A stretch of DNA of 64,000 nucleotides from an uncultured Gammaproteobacteria bacterium (GTDB lineage: Bacteria > Patescibacteriota > Microgenomatia > CAZETR01), in contig CAZETR010000011.1 in the NCBI GenBank assembly GCA_964514545.1, positions 26,294-90,293 on the forward strand, given 5' to 3'. Shown piece after piece: positions 2,808 to 25,429 of this stretch. A model generated the notes under the pieces. The model was not told the DNA's origin, searched no databases, and saw only the letters and a program-made list of their open reading frames with translations. Position 1 is the stretch's first letter, and the number at the start of each line of letters is the position of its first letter. The translations under genes and the position numbers were made by a program.

Positions 2808-3672
2808 ATAGATAAACTTTATTTAGGCTGCCGAGCATTTTTTTTGCCAGACTGACGAAGTTGACAAATTTGTATCTGGGCGGACAATAAAGTCGAATAA
2901 AATTGATGGAGTCAAAGATGTTTAACCTCGAGCGCCGGGAAAAAATTAATTTCAAAGCGTTTTTGAAATGTATTTTTTTGAGTGTATGTTCATGCCCTAG
3001 TCCGGTTAAATTGGATTTATTGTATATGATTGCCTTGTAGTAGATTGCTATTTTAAGCCCCTTTAATTTTGCTCTACACCCAAACTCGTAGTCGGAAAGA
3101 TAATGCGGAAAGGCAATATCGTTAAACAGTCCAATGGATTTAAATACACTTGTTTTATATAGCGTGCCCTTGGTTGAAAGAGTATCGATATTGGTTTCTA
3201 CTTCCAATGTTTCTTGCCAACCAGATTTGAGGATAATGGGTACATATTTGCAATTTGCCCAGTCGATATTAATCCCGGCATCGATAACCTTTTTTCCGTC
3301 TTGACTTACACACAGAGATCCAATTATTTCGTACTTGATGTTTTGACTAAATGCTACCAGGCGTCCTACATAGTCTGTATCGAAAGTGCAATCGTTGTTG
3401 ACGATTAAGACGAAATCGCTCTTTCGGGAAACCTTTAGAATTTCTTCTAAACCCCGGTTTATGGATCTGGTCCACCACAGGTTGCCGTCTCCTTCTAAAA
3501 CGGATAGGTTCTTTTGCCTACGTAAATATTGAAGTGTTCCGTCCGTCGATCCATCGTCCACGATAAAAGTTCTTAGGTTAGGATAACTTTGCTTTTTAAT
3601 ACTAGAAAGCAGTTTTTTGGTTTCATTTAATCTGTTGTGGACTGCTGTAAGAATGTAGACTGTGGGTTTCAT
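2800..3672 (-). CDS. Glycosyltransferase family 2
   Basis: Motifs ILTAVHNR...QSYPNLRTFIVDDGSTDGT and DxD. The likely start is the internal MKPTVYI at 3672, which gives an ATGA overlap with the stop of the upstream gene at 3669. Confidence 0.8.
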   Translation of the reverse strand: MKPTVYILTAVHNRLNETKKLLSSIKKQSYPNLRTFIVDDGSTDGTLQYLRRQKNLSVLEGDGNLWWTRSINRGLEEILKVSRKSDFVLIVNNDCTFDTDYVGRLVAFSQNIKYEIIGSLCVSQDGKKVIDAGINIDWANCKYVPIILKSGWQETLEVETNIDTLSTKGTLYKTSVFKSIGLFNDIAFPHYLSDYEFGCRAKLKGLKIAIYYKAIIYNKSNLTGLGHEHTLKKIHFKNALKLIFSRRSRLNIFDSINFIRLYCPPRYKFVNFVSLAKKMLGSLNKVYLYG

Positions 3673-4634
3673 TTGTCGGTTTCTAAAAATACCAGCCAAC
3701 TCTCGCCTAACCCGAGAAAATCTATCAGACGATTGAATGGAATACACGCAACGAGAAATGACCAGACCACTAGTTTGTACATGGACTGGGTAGCGCTAGA
3801 TCTATTAGGAGATAGTGAATCTGTTGGATTATCCCAGATTGGATTTGGCACTCCATGTTTTGCTTTTTTAACGAGGCTGCGAATTTGCAAGAGCGTCCAT
3901 AAATTTGGGGTAATAGTTCTCACTCTGGTGATTTTTAAGTTGTTTATTTTAGCCAGATGGTTAAGGGACTTTAAGGTAAAAAGGTTTTGATGAAATGGCA
4001 CGTGCCAATGAAGCCATTTACGCCCCAACATTTTTCGGGTAAGAGAATTCAGGTTTGGAGTACTAAGAATTATTTTTCCTGCTGGTTTTAGTTTTTTCTT
4101 TGCGGCTTGCAAGAACAATGCAGGATCCGACACGTGTTCTATCACTTGACTGGCAGTTACCACGTCAAATTTAAGTTTAGGAAACGGATTATTTGTAATT
4201 TCTCCTTGAAATACATTTAGATTGAGGGCTCTGGCAATCTTTTGAGCCATTGGGTCAGGTTCAACTCCATAGCCAGTAGATTTTTGGTCTTTAATCTCGA
4301 GTAGCGAAACTCCCGATCCTGATCCAATATCCAAAACCAGATTATGTGGCTTAATTTGCTTATGGGCTATATTGTCGATTCCTAATAACCAGCTACCAAC
4401 TTTCCCAATCTTCGAGATGGAGCTTTTCACCTGCTGGGGTGTGAATTTAGACAGAGGGTAATATTTGCTATATATTTTAGGTATCTCGTTTTTTTTTAAC
4501 CGAGGATAAGTCTGACCAAGTGAGCAGTTTTTACACTGTAGAACTGAATACTTTCCAGAAGATCCGTATCTGTCGTCGAAAAGACCACTTTCCAAAAGAT
4601 TGAGTTTTGTTTTTTTGCAAAGAACGCAGTTCAT
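3669..4634 (-). CDS. Class I SAM-dependent methyltransferase with an N-terminal Cys4 zinc-ribbon
   Basis: N-terminal CxxC...CxxC (MNCVLCKK...CKNCS). SAM motif VLDIGSGSGVSL and VTASQVIEHVSDP. Confidence 0.7.
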   Translation of the reverse strand: MNCVLCKKTKLNLLESGLFDDRYGSSGKYSVLQCKNCSLGQTYPRLKKNEIPKIYSKYYPLSKFTPQQVKSSISKIGKVGSWLLGIDNIAHKQIKPHNLVLDIGSGSGVSLLEIKDQKSTGYGVEPDPMAQKIARALNLNVFQGEITNNPFPKLKFDVVTASQVIEHVSDPALFLQAAKKKLKPAGKIILSTPNLNSLTRKMLGRKWLHWHVPFHQNLFTLKSLNHLAKINNLKITRVRTITPNLWTLLQIRSLVKKAKHGVPNPIWDNPTDSLSPNRSSATQSMYKLVVWSFLVACIPFNRLIDFLGLGESWLVFLETDK

Positions 4635-5308
4635 TTTTGCCCTTTTAACAGATAGACCGCTGTGACTGTAAAAAGATTTGGAAACATTCGCAAAACTGCC
4701 TCTGGAATTGGGCCAAGTTTGTGGATGGTAAAAAGGTGTCTATCTAAAATCTTAAGTCTTCTTTCCGCGCAGAATTTTTCAAAGTCTACGATAGATAATT
4801 GGTGAATAAGGCCTGTAGAGTACCATCTCTGGTTGGTAAACATTTTCATAGGTATTCTCCCGTCAAATAGTAGCTCGAACCTATTGTTAATGAAAGCAAA
4901 ATTGGGAAAAGAAACAATTTGTCTTTTTGCCACTCTCGCCATTTCGCTTAACAAGATCTCGGGATAAAAAACCATTTGAAGAGTAACATTGCATATTGCA
5001 AAGTCAAAATCCCTTTTTTTATATTTTAATTTTGTATCAATTCTTCCGACTGTTGCTGTAATTCCTTTTTTGCGTGCTGAATTTACACCGGAGCGCGAGA
5101 TATCTATTCCTTCGCCATTTATGCCTTTTTCAATAAGGAGCTTGAGAAGTGAGCCGTCACCGCAACCTAAATCCAGGACACTTGCGTTCGCTGGTATCCA
5201 GTCTTTGATAACACTATATTCAGCACGTTGCGAGCTCCCGTTTAGTTTATAACTATAATTTCGATTGTCACTCATTTTTCGAGTAGATAAACGGCGCTTG
5301 AAGCCCAA
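4631..5308 (-). CDS. MetW-like SAM-dependent methyltransferase (paralog A)
   Basis: VLDLGCGDGSLLKLL plus RQIVSFPNFAF closely resemble the MetW domain (CIVSFPNFGHW). Confidence 0.7.
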   Translation of the reverse strand: MGFKRRLSTRKMSDNRNYSYKLNGSSQRAEYSVIKDWIPANASVLDLGCGDGSLLKLLIEKGINGEGIDISRSGVNSARKKGITATVGRIDTKLKYKKRDFDFAICNVTLQMVFYPEILLSEMARVAKRQIVSFPNFAFINNRFELLFDGRIPMKMFTNQRWYSTGLIHQLSIVDFEKFCAERRLKILDRHLFTIHKLGPIPEAVLRMFPNLFTVTAVYLLKGQK

Positions 5309-5910
5309 AGATTTGAATGTCCGGCCAATAATATTCCAGGAATCGCTCCTAGTTTCGAAAAAATAAAAGGATGATGCATAATTTTTTTAACTTTCTTACG
5401 TTCTATATATTCCTCAAAATCTCGGATCGAGAACTGGTGGATATGTCCGGTTGAATACCAGTTGTACCCGAAAAGGGTAAATCTGGGAAACCTGCCGTTA
5501 AATAGCAGATCTAGTCTGTTTAGGATAAACGCAAAATTGGGGAAAGATACTATTTGGCGCTTTGAGACCCGAACCATTTCTGAAAGCAAAATATCCGGGT
5601 ACATGACCATTTGTATGGTAACGCAGCAGATCGAATAGTCGAAACTGTTGTTTGGGTAGGGCAACTTCTTGTCTATTCTCCCTTTGAAGGCAGTAACTCC
5701 CTTTCTCCTTGCTGACTTTACGGCAGTTGGAGAAATATCCAGACCGATTCCACGAATCTTTTTCTTTTGCAGTGACTTAAGAAGTGAACCATCGCCACAG
5801 CCGAGATCTAGAACCCTGCTTCCAGCTTCGACCAGGTCAAATATTTCTTTAAATTCAGCTCTACTAGTTTGTGAGTCGGGTGCGTACTCGTAATTTCTAT
5901 TATCGTTCAT
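5272..5910 (-). CDS. MetW-like SAM-dependent methyltransferase (paralog B)
   Basis: VLDLGCGDGSLLKSL and RQIVSFPNFAF. This is a tandem paralog of 4631..5308 with visible nucleotide-level similarity. Confidence 0.7.
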   Translation of the reverse strand: MNDNRNYEYAPDSQTSRAEFKEIFDLVEAGSRVLDLGCGDGSLLKSLQKKKIRGIGLDISPTAVKSARRKGVTAFKGRIDKKLPYPNNSFDYSICCVTIQMVMYPDILLSEMVRVSKRQIVSFPNFAFILNRLDLLFNGRFPRFTLFGYNWYSTGHIHQFSIRDFEEYIERKKVKKIMHHPFIFSKLGAIPGILLAGHSNLWASSAVYLLEK

Positions 5911-6044: not shown

Positions 6045-6890
6045 GTGATTCAAAAATTGAATATGCGAGATAAAAAACGGACAATTTACGAAAAAATTAT
6101 CTCTGGTCTCGTGACACATGTCGACCCTAGGACTCGACTGGCCGGATATGTCTATAGTTTAGCTAAGAGGTACTGTTCTGCTTATCAAGGTGAAAACGAT
6201 CCTGATTACCACACTAACGGGCAGCGGAATTTCTATAAAAAATTAGTTTTATCAGGTAATACAAAATTAGTAGTCATTGTCGGTGCGAACATTGGAGAAA
6301 TGTCGAATTATCTTCTTTCTCTGGAAAAAGGGATTGAGGTGCATTGTTTTGAGCCGGATCCAAGAGCGTTTAAAATTCTCCAAACAAAATTAAATGTCTC
6401 AAACGCCGTATTGAATCAACTGGCCGTAGGAGACAGGGTAGAAATAAAACCAATGCATATGCATAAGAAATTTAGTGAGTGGAATACTTTTCATGTATAT
6501 CCTCATCGACTAAAAGAGTTTAGATCCCAGTCAGTAAAAGTTACCACTCTCGATTCGTATCTTTCGGGAAAAAATATCTCCCACGTTGACTTATTGAAGA
6601 TCGATACGGAGGGCCACGACTTTTTTGTGCTTAAGGGAACAAGCCGTTATTTGCAACGAGCTGCAATTGACGTAATTATATTTGAGTACGGAGAGGTGTC
6701 TATGCTATCCCGACAGCTGTTTTATGACATCTATTCGTATCTTGAAGGCAATGGATATCGAGTATATAAAATAATGCCAAACTATCTGAAGAGAATTAGA
6801 TACTCGCCAGATGATGAACGATGTTTTTATGCCAACTTTGTTGCCATTCGAAGAGATTTTAACATTGGAAGTATAGAAACTGATGACTAA
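6045..6890 (+). CDS. FkbM-family methyltransferase
   Basis: VIVGANIGEMS...HCFEPDP...LKIDTEGHDFFVL matches the FkbM-family signature (TIGR01444-like). Confidence 0.75.
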   Translation: MIQKLNMRDKKRTIYEKIISGLVTHVDPRTRLAGYVYSLAKRYCSAYQGENDPDYHTNGQRNFYKKLVLSGNTKLVVIVGANIGEMSNYLLSLEKGIEVHCFEPDPRAFKILQTKLNVSNAVLNQLAVGDRVEIKPMHMHKKFSEWNTFHVYPHRLKEFRSQSVKVTTLDSYLSGKNISHVDLLKIDTEGHDFFVLKGTSRYLQRAAIDVIIFEYGEVSMLSRQLFYDIYSYLEGNGYRVYKIMPNYLKRIRYSPDDERCFYANFVAIRRDFNIGSIETDD

Positions 6891-8056
6891 GATTCAAATC
6901 GCTTTTTTTCGAGAACAGAACTTTTGTAATTTAGAGCTTTTAGGTGCAGTGCTTTAATTTCAAATCCCACCTGCTGAATTTGATTTTGAGTTAAGGCAAG
7001 CCCCGAGGGGAGATACAATCCTACTTTTGAGGCAAGGATAGTGTTCGGAAACTTATCGTTTTCGCCAAGATATGTTTTTAGGATTGGTTGATCTGATGGA
7101 GGGTAAAAAAAGTCGCGGGTATCAATTCCTCGAAGTTTTAATTCTGCACGAAGCTCGTCCCTGGACATGCCAAATTTAATCTCATCGACTGTAATTGCGT
7201 ACATCCAATAGACACATTTACATTTTTTTTCTTCGTGCGGGAGTTTGATACCAGCTACGTCCTGCAAAAGTGACATGTATGTTTTGGCCATTCGTCTTTT
7301 CTTTTCAACGTAATCTTGAATATGACCTAACCCTCCACAACCGACAGCGGCTTGGAGGTTTGTCATGCGATAGTTAAATCCCAATTTTGAGTGGATGAAA
7401 CGTTTGGGAAAGTGATATAAGTCCATTAATTTCCGGGACTCTTTAGCTAGGCTGTCATTATTCGTAACAATCATTCCTCCTTCTCCGGTGGTGATAATTT
7501 TGTTGGCATAGAAACTAAAACAGTTGATGTCTCCCAGAGATCCACATTTCCTTTCTTTATATTCCGCTCCATGTGCTTCGGCTGCGTCTTCAATGATTGT
7601 GAGTTTGTGTTTTTTGGCTATTTTAATTAACGGATCCATGTCGACAGGGTATCCGTAAATGTGAACAGGAATAATGGCTTTGGTTCTTTTGGAAATTTTT
7701 TTTTCTATTAGTTTGACGTCTATGTTAAAGGTGTCAGGATCGCAGTCGACGAATACTGGTTTGGCGCCTACATATATAACTGCCATCCATGTCGCTGCCA
7801 TTGTAAATGCAGGAACTATTACTTCATCTCTTTTTCCTATTCCGCAAGCAAGTAGGGCTACGTGAAGTGCCGCTGTTCCACTGCTGACTGCAATGGCATG
7901 TTTGACGCCAAGGAAGTGAGCAAATTTTTCTTCAAATTCTTGAATGTATTTTCCGGCTGAGGAGATCCACCCGGTTTCTAAAGCGTCTAATACGTATTTC
8001 TTCGCCTCTGGTGAAATAATGGGTTCATTTACCGGGATTATTATACTAGTGTTCAT
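6887..8056 (-). CDS. DegT/DnrJ/EryC1/StrS-family PLP-dependent sugar aminotransferase
   Basis: IIPVNEPIISPEAKKYVLDALETGWISSAGKYIQEFEEKFAHFLG, AVSSGTAALHVAL and FNYRMTNLQAAVG are hallmark motifs. Confidence 0.9.
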   Translation of the reverse strand: MNTSIIIPVNEPIISPEAKKYVLDALETGWISSAGKYIQEFEEKFAHFLGVKHAIAVSSGTAALHVALLACGIGKRDEVIVPAFTMAATWMAVIYVGAKPVFVDCDPDTFNIDVKLIEKKISKRTKAIIPVHIYGYPVDMDPLIKIAKKHKLTIIEDAAEAHGAEYKERKCGSLGDINCFSFYANKIITTGEGGMIVTNNDSLAKESRKLMDLYHFPKRFIHSKLGFNYRMTNLQAAVGCGGLGHIQDYVEKKRRMAKTYMSLLQDVAGIKLPHEEKKCKCVYWMYAITVDEIKFGMSRDELRAELKLRGIDTRDFFYPPSDQPILKTYLGENDKFPNTILASKVGLYLPSGLALTQNQIQQVGFEIKALHLKALNYKSSVLEKKRFES

Positions 8057-8456
8057 TCTCGTACGTTTTTGCTTCTTTGTCTCCAGGGTAGGGTCCTTGC
8101 TTCACCTCAATAATCTTGCATTTCTCGAGAACTTCAAGCCCATGTCCTCCACTTATGGTGAGAATAAAATCTCCAGCAGTAAGAACCACATCTTCTAATG
8201 GTTCCCAATCATCAGAAAACAAATGAACTTTTACTTTTCCTTTTACAATGTAAAGAAATTCCTGGGTCGTATCAACGTTGTATTTTATGTCTTTGCGGTG
8301 TATGTGATTCTTTACGATCTTTCCAGCAGGATGTTCAATGAGACCAAGTTGAAGTGTGTAGCTTTGAGGCGTTAAAAATCTGACGCCGTCGGCTTTTAGG
8401 CTTTTACGAAAAACTAGTGCGACGGTTTTTTTGTATGTTATCTGCTGTACTTCCAC
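8046..8456 (-). CDS. WxcM/FdtA-like cupin (NDP-4-keto-6-deoxyhexose 3,4-ketoisomerase-like)
   Basis: 136-aa cupin with HxH...H (NHIHRKD...H). Its size and its position next to an aminotransferase match FdtA/QdtA-type isomerases. Confidence 0.5.
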   Translation of the reverse strand: MEVQQITYKKTVALVFRKSLKADGVRFLTPQSYTLQLGLIEHPAGKIVKNHIHRKDIKYNVDTTQEFLYIVKGKVKVHLFSDDWEPLEDVVLTAGDFILTISGGHGLEVLEKCKIIEVKQGPYPGDKEAKTYENEH

Positions 8457-8519
8457 AGACCCTTATTATAAGCATCATTGTGCGATTATCAATCAGAATA
8501 TTTTAATCCATCAACCTAC

Positions 8520-8996
8520 TCATTTCTTTACCCAATTACTTAGAAGGTCTGAGCTTGATCTTATCTTCCCACCACCAACTCCGAATATGATTTGGCACCT
8601 TACCTTTATACACGCGTTCCTTTCGAGAATAGGTATTTTTTTGATTGAATCTATGTCTCCACCATTGGCCCAGATGTTTGGCTTTAGGTGGAGAATTGCA
8701 TTAACTACATCCCCACCTCCCATAACAAATACGTCGTCCACGCATCGCAACTCTTTAATTATGGCAACCCTATCTTCTAATGGCATAAATACTTTTCCTT
8801 TCTTTTTAATTGTGTATTCATCCCCGTCGATGACCACTACTAGCTTGTCTCCAAGCGCCTTTGCGGCCTGAAAGGAAAGTAGGTGACCTAAATGAAGTGG
8901 GTCAAAACTTCCACTTACCATAACAACTTTTTCTTTTCTTAATTCTCTTGAATTTCTTTGTAGCAATCTTTTCTTGTCTTTTTTCCGATTTAGCAT
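8520..8996 (-). CDS. Cytidylyltransferase-like nucleotidyltransferase (HxGH family, TagD/RfaE-domain-II-like)
   Basis: MVSGSFDPLHLGHL (HxGH) plus a Rossmann-like layout. The basic N-terminal 25 aa may lie upstream of the true start at 8921. Confidence 0.65.
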   Translation of the reverse strand: MLNRKKDKKRLLQRNSRELRKEKVVMVSGSFDPLHLGHLLSFQAAKALGDKLVVVIDGDEYTIKKKGKVFMPLEDRVAIIKELRCVDDVFVMGGGDVVNAILHLKPNIWANGGDIDSIKKIPILERNACIKVRCQIIFGVGGGKIRSSSDLLSNWVKK

Positions 8997-9680: not shown

Positions 9681-9702
9681 TGGCCCTTTATATCACATTT
9701 TC

Positions 9703-10326
9703 TTGAATTTTAAGAGAAGAAGTTGTTTAATGTCTGTTATGTTTGCGCAAGAAAGAGAAAGACAGGGCGAGTTCAAATTTTGCCAAGGGCTGTTGGAAGA
9801 AGCTTTGTTTGTAAAAATGCGTGAGTTTAATAGGCTTGCCCACACATACGGAGCGTCATTAGGCACTCCTGGTTTTGTTCATGGGGGCGAGGGGTTGATG
9901 GTAATTAACTTAGATGCGTTTGTGATTCAACGAGATGGTAAACCTGTTAATTTCTCTGACTTAATATTTTTTGTGGTCTTACACGAGGTGTGTGAAGAGT
10001 ATGCTCGACACTTTATGCCACTCATTCGTCATCCTGATGATTTTGAAATAGGTCGTGATCGATTTCACGAGTATGCCGTAGAACAGGAATTCAAGGCTGC
10101 TAAGCGGGTTGGCAAGATTGACAGATTGTTTGAATTTAGATGTTTGGTTTCTGGAAAGCCTAGCTTCCTTGGTAAAGTTTTTGGTTCATCTGATAGCTGG
10201 TTTGCTATATATCGAAGAGTAGAGAGTGGCACAGGTGTTACACTAGATGAAGAGGTTTTTCAATTAGTTCAAGAAAAAATTGACAGTATTGATATGGGGG
10301 CAGTATTTGATACTTATCTGTTCTGA
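9703..10326 (+). CDS. Hypothetical protein
   Basis: 207-aa ORF with an HEVCEEYARH segment and no recognisable family. It is the only plus-strand gene between two minus-strand runs. Confidence 0.4.
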   Translation: MNFKRRSCLMSVMFAQERERQGEFKFCQGLLEEALFVKMREFNRLAHTYGASLGTPGFVHGGEGLMVINLDAFVIQRDGKPVNFSDLIFFVVLHEVCEEYARHFMPLIRHPDDFEIGRDRFHEYAVEQEFKAAKRVGKIDRLFEFRCLVSGKPSFLGKVFGSSDSWFAIYRRVESGTGVTLDEEVFQLVQEKIDSIDMGAVFDTYLF

Positions 10327-12673: not shown

Positions 12674-12689
12674 TATATGGAGCGGGGAG

Positions 12690-17420: not shown

Positions 17421-18151
17421 TTTCTATTTTGTGACAAATAATCTGTCGTGTAGGCTAGTGTGTCTGGGTTTCCCGTGTCGAGCCAGGGATCAAAAAGTGT
17501 GGAAGTGAATGGATATCCTCTTTTGATCATCTCGTTTATAACGTGGGTGTCGGTGAGTTTTTGGTCGTTGGGATCCTTTTGGTAAAGATAATTCAGGGAG
17601 TCCCAAAATACTTTGTAATCCTTAACCGCTGTGAGGCCGATATGGACCTGGTGATAATCATTTGCTCCAACATCCTGTACTTTTATAAGCTTTCCATCTT
17701 CTATCCAATGGGTGCGGAAGTACTTGGTAACAACTGATTTATCCAAGTCGCGCATCGGATTTCCACCGGTCCAATTAGTGTCCGGACGGGGAATAGGCTG
17801 GGTAACAATTGTGTCGCAGGCATGGAAGATAAAGGGGCACTGAAGAAGTTCCGCGGCCTTTGACATGGAATATGCGCAGCTGGTACCGGGACCTACAAAT
17901 TTGTCTACCCATGCATATTCAACTTTGATGTCCGAATGATTTTTCTTTAGGTACTCTCTAACCTGGTCACCCAGGAATCCAAGTGTAATTACAAACGAAA
18001 CTCCTTTGGGGTAGGAATCAAAAATATAGGAGAGAATGGATTTGCCGTTTATTTCTACTAGGGCTTTGTTCTTTTCGCGGGTCAGATCACCAAGGCGGGA
18101 CCCAATTCCGGAGGTCGTCACGAGAACTTTATAGGGGTTCGGCCAGCGCAT
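17417..18151 (-). CDS. Sugar-phosphate nucleotidyltransferase (NTP_transferase family)
   Basis: KVLVTTSGIGSRLGDLT (GxGxRL) Rossmann-like nucleotidyltransferase signature. Confidence 0.7.
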   Translation of the reverse strand: MRWPNPYKVLVTTSGIGSRLGDLTREKNKALVEINGKSILSYIFDSYPKGVSFVITLGFLGDQVREYLKKNHSDIKVEYAWVDKFVGPGTSCAYSMSKAAELLQCPFIFHACDTIVTQPIPRPDTNWTGGNPMRDLDKSVVTKYFRTHWIEDGKLIKVQDVGANDYHQVHIGLTAVKDYKVFWDSLNYLYQKDPNDQKLTDTHVINEMIKRGYPFTSTLFDPWLDTGNPDTLAYTTDYLSQNRK

Positions 18152-18166: not shown

Positions 18167-19162
18167 TCACGAAAGGTTGTGGATGTAAAGATCAAAGACC
18201 CTGTGCATTTCATTCTGAATTGCGTTTGCAAAATCTTCGTGGTGGGAAATTTTGTCAAATAATCTCTTGTATTCGTCAGTGTTGAAGTTGTAGTGGCCTG
18301 AGATTGTGCTACACAAAAGCTTGTTATTGGCATCATTTTTATTGAGCCACTTCACCCATTTTTTGCTCCGGTATGAGAGCTCGAGAAATTCATTTGCGTC
18401 CAGACCGTACTGGGTGGCCTTATAGAGTGAGAGTTGCGTTTGCAGAATGCCGAATTGTGGCGCAACGTTCATTGCCGAAATCAAACCCCTTCTCTGGCTA
18501 ATTTCTTCCTGACTAAGATAATCTGCGTTGTGCTCTTTCAGGGGTAGATCGTATTTGTCTGCAAGAAGCTTCACCTTTTTTAGATAATCTTCGTGGAAAA
18601 CTCCTTCTTGGTTAATTTCTTTTATAACCGAGCCTGTCTGTGTCACGAAAAAATGCGGTTTGAAAAAAGAGGTAAAGAATTGCATCTGTTGTTCGACTTT
18701 ACCAATGTTCTCAACTTCAATTCCATTATTTTCATCGGTTCCGATCTCAATAAAAACATCGGGGGATTTTTTCTTGATATATTCGATTGCTTTTTGAGAC
18801 TCGTCGAGTATTTCATCATATGTTCCATTGTGGAAACAAAAATCGATATGAATCAAGTCAAAACCTACCTCTATATCTTCATCTATCGTTCTGTATGTAT
18901 CTTTAATGTCGTAGACGCTATTGTGGCCTGGTCCACAATGGTCCCGACAGAGTAGGACTCTGGCATCTGGATATTTTTTATCTAGTCTAGAAATGAAATT
19001 TCCGTAATCCTTGGTATTAAACACGTAGCCTCTGTCAAAATCAACCTGGTTCTTCGAGCAGATGAGCATTAGAGGAACATTGTTCTCTTGCGAGTAAGAG
19101 AAGACCGCTTCAATTATAATATTGCTCATTGGCCCTACCCCTAACGTACTAATCACTTCCAT
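18167..19162 (-). CDS. GatZ/KbaZ-like TIM-barrel protein (tagatose-bisphosphate aldolase non-catalytic subunit family), tentative
   Basis: IIEAVFSY...LMLICSKNQVDF...LCRDHCGPG parallels GatZ LVIEAAL...LIEATSNQVNQ...LGGDHLGPN. Confidence 0.4.
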   Translation of the reverse strand: MEVISTLGVGPMSNIIIEAVFSYSQENNVPLMLICSKNQVDFDRGYVFNTKDYGNFISRLDKKYPDARVLLCRDHCGPGHNSVYDIKDTYRTIDEDIEVGFDLIHIDFCFHNGTYDEILDESQKAIEYIKKKSPDVFIEIGTDENNGIEVENIGKVEQQMQFFTSFFKPHFFVTQTGSVIKEINQEGVFHEDYLKKVKLLADKYDLPLKEHNADYLSQEEISQRRGLISAMNVAPQFGILQTQLSLYKATQYGLDANEFLELSYRSKKWVKWLNKNDANNKLLCSTISGHYNFNTDEYKRLFDKISHHEDFANAIQNEMHRVFDLYIHNLS

Positions 19163-19671
19163 ATCCCGACCCCCTTTTTGAATGTCATCTGTTGGATATT
19201 AAGCCTACTATAAAATTTCGCCATGAGGTGAAAACAGGCCTCTGCAACGGCTCCTTCTCCTCCCCTTCTCTTGGTTACAAAATCAGCTTGAGTTTTGGTC
19301 TGAGGAAAAGCATTTGCGGGGGCAATTGAGTAAGCCACTGCCTTAAATACTAAGCCATCAAAGATTCCGTCGCCCATATAACAAGTTGACTTGATATCGT
19401 AATTCTCTTTTATCCATGAGACTCTATCAAAGGTGCTGACTAATGTTAGTGGAAAATGCATATCGTCGACTATTCTTTTCTTGGAGATTTCAAATCCTCT
19501 TTTGTCTCCTGAGATCATGTGAATGTTTATTCTATCTTTAATAAGGTTTAGCGCGTCGCTGTCGTCAGGGCCGAAAATTTTATATGCTTTCCCTTTGACA
19601 GAATATAAAAATTGGCCGGTCGTGAGAACTCCGTCCACATCGATAATGAAATTCTTTATTTTTTTCTTCAT
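19153..19671 (-). CDS. HAD-IIIA phosphatase, KdsC-like (3-deoxy-sugar 8/9-phosphate phosphatase family)
   Basis: IIDVDGVLTTG and GDGIFDG motifs of KdsC/NANP-type phosphatases. Confidence 0.8.
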   Translation of the reverse strand: MKKKIKNFIIDVDGVLTTGQFLYSVKGKAYKIFGPDDSDALNLIKDRINIHMISGDKRGFEISKKRIVDDMHFPLTLVSTFDRVSWIKENYDIKSTCYMGDGIFDGLVFKAVAYSIAPANAFPQTKTQADFVTKRRGGEGAVAEACFHLMAKFYSRLNIQQMTFKKGVGIWK

Positions 19672-20498
19672 TGTCCTAATAAGCGCAACATTGCACTTTT
19701 CATTATTTCAAGAGGCGCTTCCTGATCAGTGTAAAGTTCAAATTGTTTGACGGCTTGTAAAAGACACATTACCGTACCCGGAATTACGACTTTATTTCTC
19801 TTTCGGGCTAGTTTTATGAGTAGGGTATCAACTGGGCTAATTACAACCTCGTATATTATTTTGAAATTTTCAACTGCTGGTTCATCCACTGGAGTTTCAC
19901 TAAAATCAGGAGTCATGCCGATGCTGGTGGCATTTATTAGCACATCAGCTGGATATTGGTTTCTGTTATTCCAAGGAATAAAAGAATACCCTCTTTTAAG
20001 AGCGAGGTCGTGAGCCTTTTGATAGGTTCGATTGCAGATGCTAACGTCAGTGACACCCAGATGTTTAAGGGCAGCAGTTATTGCAAGGGAGACACCGCCA
20101 GCTCCCAAAACTAATACTTTTTTCCTTTCGATACTCCCTATTCCCTTCAGAGCCTCTGTTGCACCGAAAAAGTCTGTGTTGTAACCAATTAACATTCCGT
20201 TTTCATTGACGATAGTGTTCATGGCTCCAACTTCAATGGCGCTGGTGTCTAGCCTATCCATGTAGTTCAATGCGTCTACCTTAAACGGCATAGACACTCC
20301 GCATCCTCTTATTCCAAGTGCCCTTATACCGTGAATAGCATCTCTCAAATTATTCCCAGTCGGCTCGAGGCCTCGAGCAAGGTAGATCGCGTTTATGCCC
20401 AATGACTCAAACCCGGCATTATGTACAGTTGTCCCGAAATCGCTCGGTCTTTGGGCAAGTGACATGCAAATAATGGTTTCTTTGGTAATGCTAGACAT
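19668..20498 (-). CDS. Shikimate/quinate dehydrogenase (AroE)-family oxidoreductase
   Basis: GAMNTIVNENGMLIGYNTDFFG and VLVLGAGGVSLAI Rossmann segments are typical of AroE. Confidence 0.8.
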   Translation of the reverse strand: MSSITKETIICMSLAQRPSDFGTTVHNAGFESLGINAIYLARGLEPTGNNLRDAIHGIRALGIRGCGVSMPFKVDALNYMDRLDTSAIEVGAMNTIVNENGMLIGYNTDFFGATEALKGIGSIERKKVLVLGAGGVSLAITAALKHLGVTDVSICNRTYQKAHDLALKRGYSFIPWNNRNQYPADVLINATSIGMTPDFSETPVDEPAVENFKIIYEVVISPVDTLLIKLARKRNKVVIPGTVMCLLQAVKQFELYTDQEAPLEIMKSAMLRLLGQ

Positions 20499-21900
20499 AT
20501 AAAGATTTGGTTAGCATTAATTTTCCTAGATGATGGAGAAAAAAATTGAATGGTTCATGGTGTAAGGGAGACATGTTGATAAATATAATTCCTGTTAGTA
20601 ACTGGATCTTCGTTTTATCATATTTTCTGGCTTTGATAAATTCCCGAAATTCATCCCTTGCCTGATGTAAATACGGCGGGGGCTGAAGACTAATTTCTAC
20701 GCTACTGTCAGCCTGGGAAAAAGCAAATTTATTTTTCTTGATCGAACTATAAGGAATAATTAACCCTCCATAGAGTTTGGCCAGATCGTAATAAATATCA
20801 CCGTACTCTACTAAACCGGCAAAACTTTCCCGCCAGTCCAGAAGAATAAACTCAGAACTTCCATTTGGAACAAATAATACGTTGTCAAATTGTAGATCGC
20901 CATGAAACCTGACTGGTGTACCATGACAGAGATAATCCCAATCGACCAATTCGATTAATTCATTTAGGGTAGGTGTTTGTTCTCCGTTAACTTGAGTTTG
21001 AATATCTTTGTGCGAAACTGTATTCCAGTAATTATGTATTCGTTCGTTAGTTTTATTTTTATAGAATTTAACGCAGGCTTGGAAAAAATCTACCGTTTGA
21101 CCATCGGCAAGAAGTGGTTTTTGTGTATCCCAGAGGTGAGATGAGCACCACCACAAAAATCGATTTGTCAGTCCAGGAGATAAACATTCATACATCGTTT
21201 TGCCTGGTACTTTTTTATATGAATAATAATTAGCACCCACTCTGTCCAAGCTTGGAGTTAACCCGTTTAAGAATTTGATTCTTTCAACTCTTGCTTTTAC
21301 GATCTTTTCGTCCTGAAAATATTTGACAACCATGTTTTCCGGAAAGTAAATCGCCTCTTCGGGTTTGGAGAAATCGAACTCTTGATCGTTGTCATTTTTA
21401 AGGTAATTTCTGGCTTGAAGCAACTTATCTGGCTCAGATAAATTTAGATAATCGATAGCGATATCTTCATAATTTGCTTTTACTGTATCTAGTGATTTTT
21501 TTTGTTTTATTGCGTTCCAAAATGACAGATGGTCGAATACGTGAATAATTGGTTCAGATGTCCAATTGCGGTCTTCGTTGAGTGAACTGGTGTTTAGAAA
21601 ATAATTTCCAAAGACAATAAAAAACGGTGTTGTGAGCTGGTTTCTTAGTTTTAGAAGCTCTTGGGAGGTGCCGAAAATATTACCAAGATCGGTAGATGCC
21701 CTAATTACTATGATTTTTTTGTCTGGATGGGCACATAGCAAATAATCCTCCAAAAGTTTCGCATCTTTGCCGGTTATAACAATTATCTCCTCCAGCTGGG
21801 AAAAGATCGATATTTGATGAGAAATTAGAGGAATCCTTCCAAGCGAGGTTAACGATCTGACGGTATTTGAAGGAGAGATGAAGACTGCTTTTTTTGTCAC
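20491..21900 (-). CDS. Fusion: N-terminal MobA-like nucleotidyltransferase domain plus C-terminal APH/choline-kinase-like phosphotransferase
   Basis: C-terminal HGDLQFDNVL catalytic loop and LLDWRE. The N-terminal ~110 aa is a small nucleotidyltransferase-like fold. Architecture resembles LicA/LicC-type kinase plus cytidylyltransferase pairs. Confidence 0.6.
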   Translation of the reverse strand: MTKKAVFISPSNTVRSLTSLGRIPLISHQISIFSQLEEIIVITGKDAKLLEDYLLCAHPDKKIIVIRASTDLGNIFGTSQELLKLRNQLTTPFFIVFGNYFLNTSSLNEDRNWTSEPIIHVFDHLSFWNAIKQKKSLDTVKANYEDIAIDYLNLSEPDKLLQARNYLKNDNDQEFDFSKPEEAIYFPENMVVKYFQDEKIVKARVERIKFLNGLTPSLDRVGANYYSYKKVPGKTMYECLSPGLTNRFLWWCSSHLWDTQKPLLADGQTVDFFQACVKFYKNKTNERIHNYWNTVSHKDIQTQVNGEQTPTLNELIELVDWDYLCHGTPVRFHGDLQFDNVLFVPNGSSEFILLDWRESFAGLVEYGDIYYDLAKLYGGLIIPYSSIKKNKFAFSQADSSVEISLQPPPYLHQARDEFREFIKARKYDKTKIQLLTGIIFINMSPLHHEPFNFFLHHLGKLMLTKSLYV

Positions 21901-21934: not shown

Positions 21935-22435
21935 TTATATTTTTCGATGTTCCTGTTCGATTCGCCCGTTCGGGCGATCAGTATCGTCCTGAATTCGAAT
22001 AACGTCATCAAGTTGTGGCGAGGAAGCTTCGATTAAAATTAGATCTGTTAAAGCTTCTATCCTGTGTACGCCCGGGGGATTAACGTAGATTATGTGGCCC
22101 GGTCCGAGTTCTTGCGATGACACAATCTCACCAGTATCTTTATCTTCGTAATATAATATTGCTTTCCCGCTAAGTATAAAATTGTGTTCTCGCTTTTCTT
22201 TGTGATATTGGAGGCTTGTCTTTGTACCATTTTTAAGGCCTATTATTTTGAATGCGTACGAACCCTCACTGCCATCGGCAATCCAGATTTCAAAACCCCA
22301 CGGTTTTATTACTAATTTTGCTTGGGCTAAATTAAAAATTTGAAGTTCTTCGGGAAGGTTATCGGGATAAAGTTCATGTCTTCCTGTTCGTGTAAAGTTA
22401 ACAATCTGTTCAAACATTTTAATTTCTGCGCTCAT
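21935..22435 (-). CDS. Cupin-2 protein resembling the type II phosphomannose isomerase (ManC C-terminal) domain
   Basis: KPWGFEIWIA...FKII...GTKTSLQYHKEKREHNFILSGKA parallels RPWG...VKRI...LSLQMHHHRAEHW. Confidence 0.6.
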   Translation of the reverse strand: MSAEIKMFEQIVNFTRTGRHELYPDNLPEELQIFNLAQAKLVIKPWGFEIWIADGSEGSYAFKIIGLKNGTKTSLQYHKEKREHNFILSGKAILYYEDKDTGEIVSSQELGPGHIIYVNPPGVHRIEALTDLILIEASSPQLDDVIRIQDDTDRPNGRIEQEHRKI

Positions 22436-22501: not shown

Positions 22502-23371
22502 TCATTTGCCGAGATTCCTTACGGGAGTTGTGTGTTTGTATATACCACGACTAACTAGTGAGTATCTTGGGACACCTTGGTCATCATCGATGGAGGCAAA
22601 TAATTCTCTTGTTGGGAGCGAAAGGCGGAGTGGTAATATGTCAATCCGGCTGGGATCTTTTTCTAATTCAAACGGGGCCTCGTGCGTGTAGCGGCTAAGT
22701 TTATAGCCTAATAGGCTGTTTAGGAATTGGAATGGACTTTGGGGGTTTACTTTGAACCCTATTCTATTTATAAGAGCTGAGAGCGTGAATATTGGTCGAG
22801 ATAGCGTGGGTGACCATTTGTTTATATCCTTTTTCATCATTGCGATTAGGAACTCCTTTCTAAATATTCCCAAAAGGGAAATTAGGTAATAAGAATGTCC
22901 AGATTTTCTAATAGCAACCCAGTCTTTTATTCTCAGTACAGCGGTATCTGAGTACGTCTGGTGATTAAATTTCACCCCACTGAATGACTTTTTGAATCTG
23001 CCGAAGTGCCACCAAGATATGGGGAGATAATCGCTTCTACTTTTCTGCATTTCTTGGACTAGGTTTTTATATATCGTTTGCGGAGCTAAGTTAAGGTGGT
23101 CCTCGTTCCAAATAAGAATGTAGTTATGTTTGGCTTTTTGGATCATTTCCAAGGCGTTATTAATCCAACCGTTAGCGTCATTTAGAAGCTGGAAGAGTAT
23201 CATTCTGGGACCGAGCTGTTTTTTTAAATATTCTATTGCCTGATCTCTATATGGACCTCGGACATTTATTAACCAGTTGTCACTGACTTTGTCGAATGAC
23301 TTAAATGAATCTTTTAAGTGTTGAAGTTTATCTGGACTGTTTATTTTTAGATTTCCAAGAATTGTTAGCAT
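22502..23371 (-). CDS. Hypothetical protein (possibly GT-A-like)
   Basis: 289-aa soluble ORF immediately downstream of wzt. Contains NEDH; no secure family. Confidence 0.4.
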   Translation of the reverse strand: MLTILGNLKINSPDKLQHLKDSFKSFDKVSDNWLINVRGPYRDQAIEYLKKQLGPRMILFQLLNDANGWINNALEMIQKAKHNYILIWNEDHLNLAPQTIYKNLVQEMQKSRSDYLPISWWHFGRFKKSFSGVKFNHQTYSDTAVLRIKDWVAIRKSGHSYYLISLLGIFRKEFLIAMMKKDINKWSPTLSRPIFTLSALINRIGFKVNPQSPFQFLNSLLGYKLSRYTHEAPFELEKDPSRIDILPLRLSLPTRELFASIDDDQGVPRYSLVSRGIYKHTTPVRNLGK

Positions 23372-23374: not shown

Positions 23375-24607
23375 TTAACTTATTTGATAATTAAGGAGAA
23401 GGCTGCCTTCTGATTGCAGTGGCAATTGTCCGGTTTTGTAGTAATCACCAAACTCTACACTGAAGTTGCCTGCTTTTTGCACCCAGTCCAGGATGTCGCC
23501 ATTTTGGTCTACTGTGATGAGGGTAAATTGATATCTTCCAGGGGTTAATGGAAGATTGCTGATTTTAACCTTTATCACGCCGTCGGATGTACTTATATGT
23601 TGGTTAAAGATTTTATTGCTTATAAAGGCAATTCGGTTTTGCGAAACAAAATCGTCTATGCTAAGGGCAAAATCGATTTTTTTGACAGCCGGGTCAATTA
23701 TATTAAACTCTATCCAGAAGTAGGCGTCCTCCCCGCTTCTAAAGAAATTGACACTCTTTCCTAGGCTGTCTTTGAAAAACACGCGGGTAATTCTTAGCCT
23801 ACCACTTCCCTGTCTGTCTTTTCGATCTTTAAGAGAAATCTTACTTGTTTCGCCCGACATTTTCAGATACTCGGCAATTACTTTGCGTGAATCACCCGAT
23901 TTGACTAATTTTCCTTTGGAGAGGAGCAGTGATCTGGGACAGAGTGATTGAATCGCGCTCATGTTGTGGCTTACAAAAATTACTGTTCTTCCGCTTTTGG
24001 CAACGTCCTGCATCTTGCCGATACTTTTTTTCTGGAACCTGGCATCTCCTACTGCCAATACTTCGTCAACCAGTAGAATTTCCGATTCTAAAAATGCGGC
24101 GATTGAAAATGCTAGGCGAGTATACATGCCTGAGGAATAGTGTTTCACGGGTGTATCCAAAAATTTTTGGATCTCGGAAAAATTCACTATATCGTTGTAT
24201 TTCTTTTTAATTTCCGTTCTACTCATTCCGAGGATTGATCCATTTAGGAAAATATTTTCTTTTCCGGTTAATTCCGGATGAAAACCGGTTCCCACCTCCA
24301 GTAAACTGGCTACTCGCCCGCGAAGATTAATTTGTCCCTGTGTTGGGGGTGTTATCTGGCTGAGTACTTTTAAGAGTGTACTTTTGCCTGCTCCGTTTCC
24401 GCCGATTACTCCTAGCACCTCTCCTTGACCTACGTTGAAAGATACATTTTTCAAGGCCCAAAGGGATATGGCGGGAGCCTTTAGAATTGGCTGAATTTGT
24501 GGAAATTTGATAATTTTAGCAATCGAATCCCGAAGTGCGTGATATGGCTGACGCTCCCCCAGGGCATATTCTTTGGATAAATTTTTGACTTCTATGATTG
24601 GCTCCAT
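23375..24607 (-). CDS. wzt: ABC transporter ATP-binding protein Wzt/TagH-type with C-terminal carbohydrate-binding extension
   Basis: Walker A GGNGAGKST, signature YSSGMYTRLAF, Walker B ILLVDE. A ~160-aa β-rich C-terminal extension resembles Wzt_C. Confidence 0.9.
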   Translation of the reverse strand: MEPIIEVKNLSKEYALGERQPYHALRDSIAKIIKFPQIQPILKAPAISLWALKNVSFNVGQGEVLGVIGGNGAGKSTLLKVLSQITPPTQGQINLRGRVASLLEVGTGFHPELTGKENIFLNGSILGMSRTEIKKKYNDIVNFSEIQKFLDTPVKHYSSGMYTRLAFSIAAFLESEILLVDEVLAVGDARFQKKSIGKMQDVAKSGRTVIFVSHNMSAIQSLCPRSLLLSKGKLVKSGDSRKVIAEYLKMSGETSKISLKDRKDRQGSGRLRITRVFFKDSLGKSVNFFRSGEDAYFWIEFNIIDPAVKKIDFALSIDDFVSQNRIAFISNKIFNQHISTSDGVIKVKISNLPLTPGRYQFTLITVDQNGDILDWVQKAGNFSVEFGDYYKTGQLPLQSEGSLLLNYQIS

Positions 24608-24613
24608 TTTGGG

Positions 24614-25429
24614 TCAGATGATGTCTGCTATATATTTTTCTGTGTGTTTGAAGTAAGCAAGTCCTGAGGCAAAAATTATGACAGCTGAAGTTATGGATGT
24701 AATAATAACCGGCCAATTAAGAATCACTGTCCCGGACAATGCCTCTCTGGATGAATCAATGACTGCGGTCATGGGATTTAGCGCCATAATTAATTTATTT
24801 GTGGAGCTGACAATACTTAAGGGATATATCACGGGAGTGACAAATAGCAGAATTTGAATAAAGAATGGAAGGATATACCTAACGTCGCGAAATCGAACGT
24901 TTAGAGCGCTGGTAAATAAGCTAAGTCCGGCAGAGGTTACGGTGGTTAGCAGAATTGCAAGTGGAATAATCAATATCGCGTAGATAGATGGCGTGAATTT
25001 TAGTACCAGGGAATAGAGTATTAATATAATAAGATTAATGGTGAAGTCTACAAAGCTGACAAGTATGGATGATAGCGGGAGAAAAATCTTGGGAAAATAG
25101 ACTTTTTTGATCAGATTTTCATTTTCAATCAAAGAATTACTGGCATGGCTGAGTACCCCCGAAAAAAAATTCCAGAAAACTAATCCCCCTAGAACAAAAA
25201 GCGAGTATGGCAATTTACCTGAGGAAATGCGAGCTAATTTTCCGAAGAAAACAGTGAATATAATCATGGTTGTAACGGGTTGAAAAACTGTCCATGCAAT
25301 CCCCAGGAAAGTTTGCTTATATCTAACTTTTATATCTCTCCAGGCGAAAATAAAAAATAGTTCCCGAAACCGCCACAGTTCTTTCCAGTCAATATTCCAC
25401 CAATTATTGCGGGGAGTAATTGTAATCAT
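24614..25429 (-). CDS. wzm: ABC-2 type polysaccharide export permease Wzm
   Basis: REL...RDIKVRYKQTFLGIAWTVFQP ABC-2 signature, six predicted TM helices, ATGA-coupled to wzt. Confidence 0.85.
   Translation of the reverse strand: MITITPRNNWWNIDWKELWRFRELFFIFAWRDIKVRYKQTFLGIAWTVFQPVTTMIIFTVFFGKLARISSGKLPYSLFVLGGLVFWNFFSGVLSHASNSLIENENLIKKVYFPKIFLPLSSILVSFVDFTINLIILILYSLVLKFTPSIYAILIIPLAILLTTVTSAGLSLFTSALNVRFRDVRYILPFFIQILLFVTPVIYPLSIVSSTNKLIMALNPMTAVIDSSREALSGTVILNWPVIITSITSAVIIFASGLAYFKHTEKYIADII

Follow-up and report, generated by a model that had tools for sequence, protein, structure and literature searches.

Which structure finishes a glycan chain before an ABC transporter exports it, and what does the carbohydrate-binding domain (CBD) of such an exporter read? 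These questions are raised by a gene run at positions 3669–25429 of the DNA analysed here, a 64-kb stretch of contig CAZETR010000011.1 from an uncultured bacterium (hereafter the window), in which the exporter genes wzm and wzt lie in company with many methyltransferase genes. Nearly all genes of the window, whose GC content is ~0.40, belong to glycan biosynthesis, and the run is densely packed on the minus strand, with one exception (6045–6890, plus strand). To our knowledge, the caps worked out for CBD-bearing Wzt exporters comprise only methyl, methyl-phosphate and β-Kdo (ketodeoxyoctonate) groups, from a handful of Proteobacteria and Aquifex. An earlier annotation made from the letters alone (the sequence-only reading) had proposed a heavily methylated, capped polysaccharide whose terminus is read by Wzt. 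For the most part its observation holds, and its interpretation finds partial support; it listed the genes from wzt to a C-methyltransferase-type gene only in part and missed a conserved mobile unit. We report here that the genes directly after wzt are a conserved mobile cassette, and its gene content suggests that it most likely makes a methylated rare sugar, activated as a nucleoside diphosphate (NDP) sugar, de novo.

Pfam scans covered the ~60 open reading frames (ORFs) of at least 100 aa in the whole window. Comparison loci and metagenome contigs are labelled with L-numbers (L012, L084 and so on). The contigs L084, L085/L086, L087/L088 and L092 are independent of one another, and L092, the closest relative, comes from sample SAMN03842437, whose designation 'ANAN16' is a mere label and gives no taxonomic hint.

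The exporter and its carbohydrate-binding domain

The ABC-2 permease Wzm (24614–25429, minus strand; PF01061, ABC2_membrane, 79.8 bits) has six hydrophobic segments, or ~6 transmembrane (TM) passes, and shares 40–63% identity with the Wzt-adjoining Wzm of related loci. Its gene is separated by 6 nt from that of the 410-aa ATPase subunit Wzt (23375–24607, minus strand), which matches PF00005 (ABC_tran, 79.7 bits) and PF14524 (Wzt_C). This adjacent, Pfam-confirmed pair bears out the proposed ABC-transporter-dependent glycan locus, and the locus is the cytoplasmic half of such a surface-glycan pathway. The nucleotide-binding domain (NBD; aa 47–250, nt 23858–24469, minus strand) ends near aa 250 and leaves a C-terminal extension of ~160 aa, in which, as had been predicted, Wzt_C is found at aa 263–385 with 46.6 bits against a gathering cut-off of 30.4.

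An AlphaFold (AF2) model of Wzt, built from 60 homologues, had a mean predicted local distance difference test score (pLDDT) of 87.7, and its C-terminal domain showed the anticipated β-sandwich fold, all-β with eight strands, at pLDDT 90–97. In a Foldseek search, the model retrieved the full-length A. aeolicus transporter first (7k2t/8dku/8dl0; E ~1e-40, ~410 columns), and the best PDB match by phmmer was A. aeolicus Wzt as well (8dku/7k2t; E = 2.5e-67 over aa 47–385; NBD, E = 2e-63). Moreover, a profile of the CBD alone (alignment A5) matched 8dky and 6o14, crystals of the A. aeolicus CBD on its own (E = 2e-11), and gave no other credible match, and the CBDs of E. coli O9a and Raoultella went undetected by this profile at E ≤1. 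The C-terminal extension of Wzt (aa ~256–410, 23378–23842, minus strand) genuinely belongs to the family of cap-reading CBDs and is of the A. aeolicus type.

An exporter of the teichoic-acid type (TagGH/TarGH), carrying a polyol-phosphate polymer, was also considered, as the top NCBIfam models for Wzt are those of TagH (PRK13545 and PRK13546), a small TagD/RfaE-like cytidylyltransferase is encoded at 8520–8996, and the best folds for the 289-aa protein encoded after wzt are wall-teichoic-acid glycosyltransferases. However, the TagH models match the NBD only and stay far below their cut-offs (199.6 vs. 538 and 168.4 vs. 320), the TagH/TarH structures align to aa 48–267 only, and no match to Glyphos_transf (TagF/TarL) was found in the window. 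Together with the Wzt_C domain, these NBD-only, sub-cut-off matches effectively refute a grouping with TagH, and we regard a teichoic-acid exporter as hardly credible.

The A. aeolicus CBD binds 3-O-methyl-mannose and 3-O-methyl-rhamnose, with the methyl group stacked on Trp362 (PMC9445017). W375 of the window Wzt aligns with this residue and is invariant in alignments A1 and A5. Among the other positions of the cap pocket, T346 is conserved as T362, and I364 takes the place of A348. This replacement, the lack of a recognisable dedicated terminator in the window and the existence of thousands of Wzt_C proteins without a known cap would all fit a CBD that reads no specific cap, being either a general backbone binder or a structural remnant, with chain length set by stoichiometry as in the CBD-less systems of K. 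pneumoniae O2a and mycobacterial galactan. Yet all experimentally studied CBD-bearing Wzts are cap-dependent, with an essential CBD (PMC9445017), the domain is highly conserved and confidently folded, and it diverges far faster than the NBD (median identity 33% vs. 66%), as expected of a specificity module. A CBD without a specific cap thus appears quite improbable.

The architecture of Wzt is very common: 8000 candidates were obtained at E ≤1e-10, nearly all with Wzt_C and from many phyla, and the relatives include Patescibacteria and Methanoregula archaea. Because close relatives occur in archaea and in candidate phyla that are not expected to make lipopolysaccharide (LPS), CBD-type Wzt is not confined to O-antigen export, and the O-antigen reading of the locus cannot be assumed. 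Identities to Wzt of 45–57% in the best aligned segment were seen in Methanoregula metagenome-assembled genomes (L059, L064) and in Patescibacteria (L012, L014, L017, L026, L029 and L043); the match spans the CBD in L012, L014 and L026 and ends at residue 303 in L029. Taken alone, Wzt_C together with many methyltransferases is a fairly ordinary, common kind of system.

A cassette of probable sugar-pathway genes directly after wzt

The cassette lies directly after wzt, in one tightly packed operon on the minus strand: only 3 nt separate the wzt stop from the start of the first cassette gene, and the kinase, shikimate dehydrogenase (SDH)-like, HAD and GatZ-like genes overlap by 4–10 nt. The first gene (22502–23371, minus strand) encodes a protein of 289 aa without any Pfam or NCBIfam match at E ≤0.01, and no standalone member of its family has an entry in the precomputed Pfam annotation. 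Its AF2 model (pLDDT 91.3; predicted template modelling score, 0.88) gave TarP, TarS, RmlT and CgT as top Foldseek matches (E ~1e-5; TM-scores 0.40–0.47). In addition, an invariant W-x-E-D motif (WNEDH) occupies the DxD position of the model, and E90-D91 is invariant in 27 sequences. The protein reads as a divergent GT-A glycosyltransferase of a new family without a Pfam model, as judged from its predicted fold, and we propose that it is the dedicated transferase for the cassette sugar. A word-indexed search of 5.8e9 proteins yielded 28 clusters of the family, and the exhaustive comparison of a profile with 1.84e9 proteins yielded 479 representatives. Some members carry a PHI-type SIS domain or a cupin-like extension as a C-terminal fusion. 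A role as a Wzt-specific terminator was considered for the 289-aa protein and is weakened, as the family also occurs in Wzx-type loci and fused to isomerase domains.

The second gene (21935–22435, minus strand) encodes a cupin of the phosphomannose-isomerase C-terminal type (PF01050, 31.6 bits against a cut-off of 23.6), proposed to be the sugar-phosphate isomerase of the cassette front end. It is followed by a 469-aa kinase of the APH/choline-kinase type (20491–21900, minus strand), with a weak PF01636 match and the motifs HGDLQFDN and LLDWRE. This kinase belongs to a large family of ~530-aa fusions of an NTP_transferase domain with a choline/thiamine-kinase-like domain, which comprises more than 1,000 clusters, its few named members including proteins of candidate-phyla bacteria and DPANN archaea. 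In the alignment, the N-terminal domain of the window kinase is a nucleotidyltransferase relic that has lost the GxGSRMG loop and carries an internal deletion. An intact copy of this domain is encoded 2.3 kb downstream, as a stand-alone sugar-1-phosphate nucleotidyltransferase (17417–18151, minus strand; PF00483, 26.4 bits) with a GIGSRLG motif, which aligns with the N-terminal domain of the fusion family, gives weak matches to MurU models and is 42–75% identical in cassette loci. The pair looks like a fusion protein that is being split or made redundant. Since the kinase belongs to the nucleotidyltransferase–kinase family and is accompanied by an intact separate nucleotidyltransferase, it was taken as a sugar-activating enzyme rather than a WbdD-like polymer kinase, and we propose that it phosphorylates the anomeric position of a sugar. 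A terminator of the WbdD or WbbB type (kinase plus methyltransferase, coiled coil, or GT99) was sought in all window ORFs and not found, the only kinase domain being the one of this sugar-activation family.

Next come an SDH-like oxidoreductase (19668–20498, minus strand) and a KdsC-like HAD sugar-phosphate phosphatase (19153–19671, minus strand). The former contains Shikimate_dh_N, Shikimate_DH and SDH_C domains and scores below the cut-offs of NF009202 (239 vs. 306 bits) and aroE TIGR00507 (198.7 vs. 200.2); it is proposed to serve an accessory step found only in the sub-type of cassette present in the window. The latter matches TIGR01670 below its cut-off (67.5 bits) and shows 51–76% identity across cassette loci. 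The adjoining gene (18167–19162, minus strand) encodes a 331-aa GatZ/KbaZ-like protein of the class II aldolase fold, with PF08013 at 26.9 bits (cut-off 26.7) and PF01116 at 22.9 bits. The PF08013 match covers aa 12–112 only, the protein is ~90 aa shorter than GatZ, and the remaining Zn ligands could not be aligned. Weak PDB matches to 3txv and 2fiq were obtained, and D74-H75 align with the catalytic Asp87-His88 of GatZ. On these residues and the family match, a putative role as a ketose-phosphate C4 epimerase is proposed.

The cassette also includes a 387-aa methyltransferase (13622–14785, minus strand; PF13489, Methyltransf_23, 44.9 bits). Its C-terminal half (aa 166–372) matches the mycarose 3-C-methyltransferase 4rv9 at E = 0.008 and may weakly resemble the C-terminal domain of NDP-sugar C-methyltransferases such as those of the TylC3/TcaB9 type, and no cluster of Cys residues, such as a Zn-Cys N-terminal domain would have, is visible in the first 95 aa. 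Orthologues that are 48–59% identical occur in L084, L089, L090, L091 and L093, some of them with a weak PF08484 (Methyltransf_14) match.

Between the nucleotidyltransferase and methyltransferase genes of the window lies a 2.6-kb segment (14815–17420, minus strand) that encodes an IMPase-family protein (16458–17420; PF00459, 67.5 bits) and two ORFs (15585–16412 and 14815–15519) without any Pfam or NCBIfam family match. The segment has no homologue in L084 or L085, where the nucleotidyltransferase gene is followed by the methyltransferase gene directly (L085) or after a GT2 gene (L084), and its GC content is 0.425–0.441 vs. ~0.39 in the flanks. Its absence from relatives and higher GC content mark it as a lineage-specific insertion. 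The 234-aa ORF 14815–15519 contains two HxS/T-type motifs (PLHSTV and LHISLA), reminiscent of 2H phosphoesterases.

Conservation and mobility of the cassette

The order Wzm–Wzt–GT-A–cupin–kinase–SDH–HAD–GatZ-like–nucleotidyltransferase is kept in L084, L085/L086, L087/L088 and L092 as far as the contigs run; those of L087/L088 and L092 break off before its end. In L084 and L085, the methyltransferase of the 13622 type comes after the nucleotidyltransferase gene. The cassette proteins are 42–87% identical across these relatives, and the glycosyltransferases, methyltransferases and aminotransferases around them differ.

The GT-A alignment was further compared with metagenome contigs, which yielded 80 loci, and the 45 of at least 9 kb were counted. 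The kinase and the nucleotidyltransferase were each present in 41 of the 45, the KdsC-like HAD in 34 and the 13622-type methyltransferase in 33. The GatZ-like protein was found in 24, always with the cupin, which was itself counted in 26; a different front end, composed of an Rpe/AlsE-like protein and a SIS domain, was found in 15, none of which had the GatZ-like protein. The two front ends thus never share a locus, and SIS stands in for the cupin. The SDH-like gene was seen in only five loci. Wzt was nearby in 10 loci and a Wzx-type flippase in 8, never both in one locus.

Furthermore, the gene fusions tie the steps of the cassette together. They comprise GT-A with SIS or a cupin-like extension, nucleotidyltransferase with kinase (as throughout the family), and this pair with SIS (L090), with cupin (L091) or with HAD (L093). 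Extra methyltransferases of the FkbM, TylF, CmcI or radical-SAM type accompanied the cassette in every example inspected.

Proposed route to the cassette sugar

GatZ and KbaZ are C4 epimerases that convert fructose-6-phosphate to tagatose-6-phosphate, and rare sugars can be reached by a thermodynamically favourable route in which epimerisation precedes dephosphorylation (PMC11907403). A pathway was assembled for the cassette from family chemistry and the gene fusions. A ketose-6-phosphate would be epimerised by the GatZ-like protein (or, in the other type of cassette, by the Rpe/AlsE-like one) and isomerised to an aldose-6-phosphate by the cupin (or the SIS domain), and the phosphate would then be removed by the HAD enzyme. 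The APH-type kinase would re-phosphorylate the sugar at C1, for which the kinases AmgK and NahK are precedents, and the nucleotidyltransferase would convert the product to an NDP-sugar. The 13622-type methyltransferase would methylate the sugar, and the GT-A enzyme would transfer it onto the lipid-linked polymer. The front ends would give talose/galactose-type vs. allose/altrose-type hexoses, or might act on pentulose phosphates. The rest of the chain may be built by the other methyltransferases, the DegT aminotransferase with an acetyltransferase, and the GT4 and Glyco_trans_1_2 glycosyltransferases.

Several points weigh against this explanation. Which sugar is made, in what order the enzymes act and what the methyltransferase accepts are all inferred, and the SDH-like enzyme fits no step. 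Most cassette proteins score below curated family cut-offs, and the GT-A assignment derives from a predicted structure with modest TM-scores. Weighing these points, we hold it probable, if only just, that the locus combines the exporter with a cassette that makes a methylated rare sugar for the exported glycan.

A terminal cap or a sugar within the chain

The methylated cassette sugar could be placed as the non-reducing terminal residue, where it would stop elongation, be bound by the CBD and license export. In favour of such a cap, the GT-A gene begins only 3 nt past wzt, extra methyltransferases go with the cassette, the most similar CBD studied so far binds a terminal sugar that is O-methylated, and the CBD clade tracks the adjacency of the GT-A gene to wzt: in the six lineages in which GT-A abuts wzt (the types of the window, L092, L084, L085, L087 and L117), the CBDs are 42–87% identical to that of the window (its own excluded), and in 80 GTDB loci picked by Wzt similarity, identity to the window CBD reaches 41.7% at most, with a median of ~30%. 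GT-A abuts wzt in L117 even though the front end there is Rpe plus SIS.

Other evidence stands against a cap. W375 is invariant across the whole sampled Wzt_C clade, so that it says little on specificity and does not discriminate between ligands. The cassette is not specific to Wzt, the 8 of 45 loci with a Wzx-type flippase including L089, L090 and L093; its presence there means that the sugar can be an ordinary side-chain or repeat-unit residue. Where the cassette lies 4–6 kb from wzt, the CBD is only 23–25% identical to that of the window or cannot be aligned. In L082, the CBD is 56% identical, no cassette was seen within 17.7 kb, and a methyltransferase–GT2 fusion and radical-SAM enzymes are present instead. 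Strict co-variation of CBD and cassette was also considered and holds only partly, given L082 and the distant cassette–Wzt pairs with unrelated CBDs.

These same data bear on a rival explanation, in which a stand-alone methyltransferase caps the final sugar of the backbone with an O-methyl (or methyl-phosphate) group, as happens in E. coli O8 and A. aeolicus, and the cassette sugar is a component of the repeat unit or a side branch. Candidate enzymes are the FkbM-like proteins, the membrane-anchored Zn-ribbon methyltransferase and a methyltransferase–GT2 fusion encoded at 46390–47832. The closest solved CBD binds 3-O-methyl sugars through the Trp that the window Wzt conserves, FkbM homologues of 12690–13628 or 6045–6890 lie directly after wzt in L055, L045 and L020, the Wzx-type loci with a cassette need no cap, and L082, lacking a cassette, has an orthologue of the fusion (48% identity) beside and divergent to wzm. 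In contrast, no stand-alone methyltransferase is kept beside wzt in L084, L085, L087 and L092, where GT-A and the cassette are, the CBD clade follows GT-A as described above, and no WbdD-like methyltransferase with a kinase or coiled-coil ruler is encoded in the window. On balance, such a plain methyl cap seems rather unlikely, and a terminal cap made from the cassette sugar is a plausible assignment for the window locus, on which we would not quite rely.

Methyltransferases and other genes of the run

The sequence-only reading counted at least seven methyltransferases in a single minus-strand run. Six were confirmed within 3669–25429, and a seventh, described as lying downstream, could not be identified; five of the six are on the minus strand and one FkbM gene is on the plus strand. 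Six methyltransferases per ~25 genes is far above the genomic background of a few per cent, and a similar enrichment is seen in the related loci L091, L093 and L082. Apart from the cassette methyltransferase, the set starts with a Zn-ribbon enzyme (3669–4634, minus strand; Methyltransf_23, PF13489, 91.5 bits) that has an N-terminal CxxC...CxxC pattern, one C-terminal hydrophobic segment at aa ~288 and a 39%-identical orthologue in L087/L088. Two tandem MetW-like enzymes follow (5272–5910 and 4631–5308, minus strand; PF07021, 157.8 and 167.7 bits), which are paralogues with 56% identity. The plus-strand FkbM enzyme (6045–6890; PF05050, 77 bits) has homologues adjoining wzt in L020 and L028. The last is an FkbM-like enzyme (12690–13628, minus strand) with a marginal PF05050 score (23.0 bits vs. 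a cut-off of 22.7), the gene of which overlaps that of the cassette methyltransferase by 7 nt. It is 56% identical to the gene product directly after wzt in the Nostocales locus L055, 32% to that of the Saccharibacteria locus L045 and 50% to a homologue in L117. No methyltransferase of the run carries a kinase or coiled-coil extension of the WbdD type. Abundant methylation of the glycan is plausible, as had been suggested. None of the methyltransferases originally listed could be tied to the chain terminus.

Two further methyltransferase domains are encoded outside the run: one at 34925–35695, and the methyltransferase–GT2 fusion at 46390–47832 (plus strand; Methyltransf_25/23/11 and PF00535), an alternative candidate for a chain-terminating enzyme.

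The run also encodes two putative cytoplasmic glycosyltransferases, assigned by family: a Glyco_trans_1_2 protein (11552–12847, minus strand; PF13524, 108.7 bits), which probably starts at M59 (12673) and has homologues near Wzt in Acidobacteriota, cyanobacterial and Parcubacteria loci, and a GT4 protein (10314–11555, minus strand; PF00534, 92.7 bits). Genes at 6887–8996 may form an amino-sugar block. The predicted aminotransferase was confirmed as a LegC/PseC-like DegT type (6887–8056, minus strand; PF01041, 399 bits; TIGR04181, 352.8, below the cut-off of 420). The assignment of 8046–8456 (minus strand) as a ketoisomerase was not supported: this FdtA/QdtA-type 3,4-ketoisomerase candidate gave no FdtA or QdtA match, its product being a weak WbuC-like cupin (TIGR04366, 34.6 bits, cut-off 42; Cupin_2, E = 0.005). 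The third member is the small cytidylyltransferase-like protein (8520–8996, minus strand; RfaE domain II, 70.6 bits, below the cut-off of 181.5).

The minus-strand run is broken by 633 nt at 9681–10313, where the only ORF (9703–10326, plus strand, 207 aa) has no family match. It may be spurious and overlie a promoter or intergenic region that divides the run into two transcription units.

Wider neighbourhood in the window

The sequence-only reading also stated that initiating transferases, Wzx, Wzy and a chain-length regulator are absent. In agreement, none of the window ORFs gave a Pfam match to Glycos_transf_4 (WecA), Bac_transf (WbaP), Polysacc_synt (Wzx), Wzy_C/O-antigen ligase or Wzz, with the caveat that about a dozen multi-TM proteins have a weak family match or none.

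Directly upstream of wzm lie genes for two ~10-TM proteins of ~600–680 aa (25426–27471 and 27474–29396, minus strand), which we call family A; they are 42% identical to each other, a third copy is encoded at 33138–34928 (minus strand), and all share an invariant SxPPYxxDExxYH loop. L082, L084, L085 and L092 have homologues, either next to Wzm/Wzt or elsewhere in the locus. Family A matched nothing in Pfam and, with a seven-sequence profile, nothing in the PDB, and hhalign did not link it to the PMT_2 paralogues described below; a role in extracytoplasmic glycan transfer is a guess. A hydrophilic Ala/Gly/Ser-rich stretch of ~80 aa in the product of 25426–27471 (aa ~292–369, nt ~26360–26600) is missing from the L092 orthologue and from the paralogue 27474–29396; it may have been inserted, or it may reflect a local error of assembly or frame. 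Further upstream, at the head of the minus-strand run, are a fusion of a membrane domain with a hexapeptide acetyltransferase (29427–31268, minus strand; Hexapep matches at aa 557–591) and a small GT2 (31258–31971, minus strand; PF00535, 55.7 bits). The acetyltransferase part is 57–59% identical to stand-alone acetyltransferases in L084 and L087, and synteny is kept in L092.

In the distal part of the window, five tandem multi-TM paralogues of the PMT_2 type (GT-C-like; 53134–61483, minus strand) share 27–31% identity, and a more weakly related sixth protein is encoded at 61630–63183 (plus strand). Together with small GT2s and a DUF2304 protein (49378–53168), the genes at 49378–63183 look like a polyprenyl-phosphate-sugar/GT-C decoration system. 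Once exported, the polymer would probably be decorated or transferred by the small GT2s and many multi-TM proteins from other parts of the window. A GDP-heptose-like module (40395–46311, both strands) comprises genes for a short-chain dehydrogenase/reductase, an NTP_transferase, a GHMP kinase, a GFO/IDH/MocA oxidoreductase, a transaldolase/FSA and a GmhA-like SIS protein; parts of it are 42–47% identical to Methanoregula L059 and L064, both of which have a Wzt_C-bearing Wzt.

No tRNA or Rfam match was found in the window, and a promoter and terminator scan of 21.8–33.2 kb gave nothing exceeding shuffled expectation. Positions 1–1742 contain no credible ORF, and their GC content (0.425) and GC skew (0.17) are both above those of the neighbouring genes. 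The last ~35 aa of the adjacent GT8-like ORF (1743–2807) resemble read-through into this region.

Significance and comparison with known systems

The new part of this analysis is the conserved cassette, the unassigned GT-A family and their recurrent place directly after a particular CBD clade. A portable sugar pathway that stands with a transferase and methyltransferases directly after wzt in several lineages would be a concrete, testable candidate for a new cap chemistry. If true, the explanation would assign functions to a GT-A family of ~480 representative clusters without a Pfam model, to the nucleotidyltransferase–kinase fusion family, and to the SdhL-like and short GatZ-like proteins. 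Moreover, the two front ends, with a C4 or C3 ketose-phosphate epimerase, mirror engineered routes to rare sugars and could serve in making nucleotide-activated rare sugars. In its fullest form, the proposal is that the cassette, an undescribed and horizontally mobile pathway, yields a methylated rare sugar in NDP-activated form, that a new GT-A family attaches this sugar, and that in Wzt loci it forms a new type of cap, which uncultured, possibly LPS-less bacteria read with a CBD of the A. aeolicus type; put this broadly, it is tentative and rather doubtful.

The closest known system is the A. aeolicus WzmWzt transporter (7K2T, 8DKU, 8DKY, 6O14; PMC9445017), which shares the Wzm–Wzt pair, an NBD that is 44–49% identical and a CBD that is homologous over its full length, the only solved CBD matched by the CBD-only profile. 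It differs in that overall identity is only 33% and A348 corresponds to I364 in the window Wzt. We know of no description of such a cassette for A. aeolicus.

A precedent for a cap that consists of a special sugar, added by a transferase dedicated to it, is β-Kdo. If the cap model holds, the window would follow the same logic as E. coli O9a/O8 (WbdD with a Wzt CBD) and K. pneumoniae O12 or R. terrigena (β-Kdo cap added by WbbB), in which the chain is finished in the cytoplasm and a terminal modification stops its growth and is read by the CBD (WbdD and WbbB capping partly as described in PMC9445017). Unlike these systems, the window has no detected WbdD-like protein or GT99 Kdo transferase, and its candidate cap sugar would come from a different, uncharacterised pathway.

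With respect to activation, AmgK/MurU, NahK and the Fkp fusion exemplify salvage-type pathways in which an anomeric kinase acts with a nucleotidyltransferase. In the window and its relatives, as in these pathways, a kinase with the APH/choline-kinase fold goes together with an NTP_transferase domain, as a partner or as a fusion; in contrast to them, the operon itself appears to supply the free sugar de novo, through an epimerase, an isomerase and a phosphatase, and not by scavenging. The GatZ-like protein shares with GatZ/KbaZ (PMC11907403) a PF08013 match just above the cut-off, the Asp-His pair and an HAD phosphatase next door, but it has 331 aa against ~420 aa and its similarity is confined to the N-terminal ~110 residues.

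The 289-aa protein has the GT-A core of TarP, TarS and RmlT, with an acidic, DxD-like E90-D91. Like these enzymes, which glycosylate wall teichoic acid ahead of its ABC export, it would modify a polymer that is still cytoplasmic and lipid-linked, before an ABC-2 exporter takes it out. In contrast to these enzymes, with which it shares 10–16% identity, it has no Pfam GT2 match and no trimerisation or C-terminal domains, and it carries invariant C-terminal motifs of its own.

In mycobacteria, galactan is exported and then acted upon by GT-C arabinosyltransferases. The window is similar to the mycobacterial galactan Wzm-Wzt system (PMC13649706) in that its exporter is accompanied by small GT2s of the polyprenyl-phosphate-sugar-synthase type and by many PMT_2/GT-C-like paralogues with multiple TM segments, although mycobacterial Wzt has no CBD and no Emb/Aft homology was shown for the membrane proteins of the window. 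By this analogy, the layout of the window suggests a two-stage assembly, in which the exported polymer would be further modified outside the membrane.

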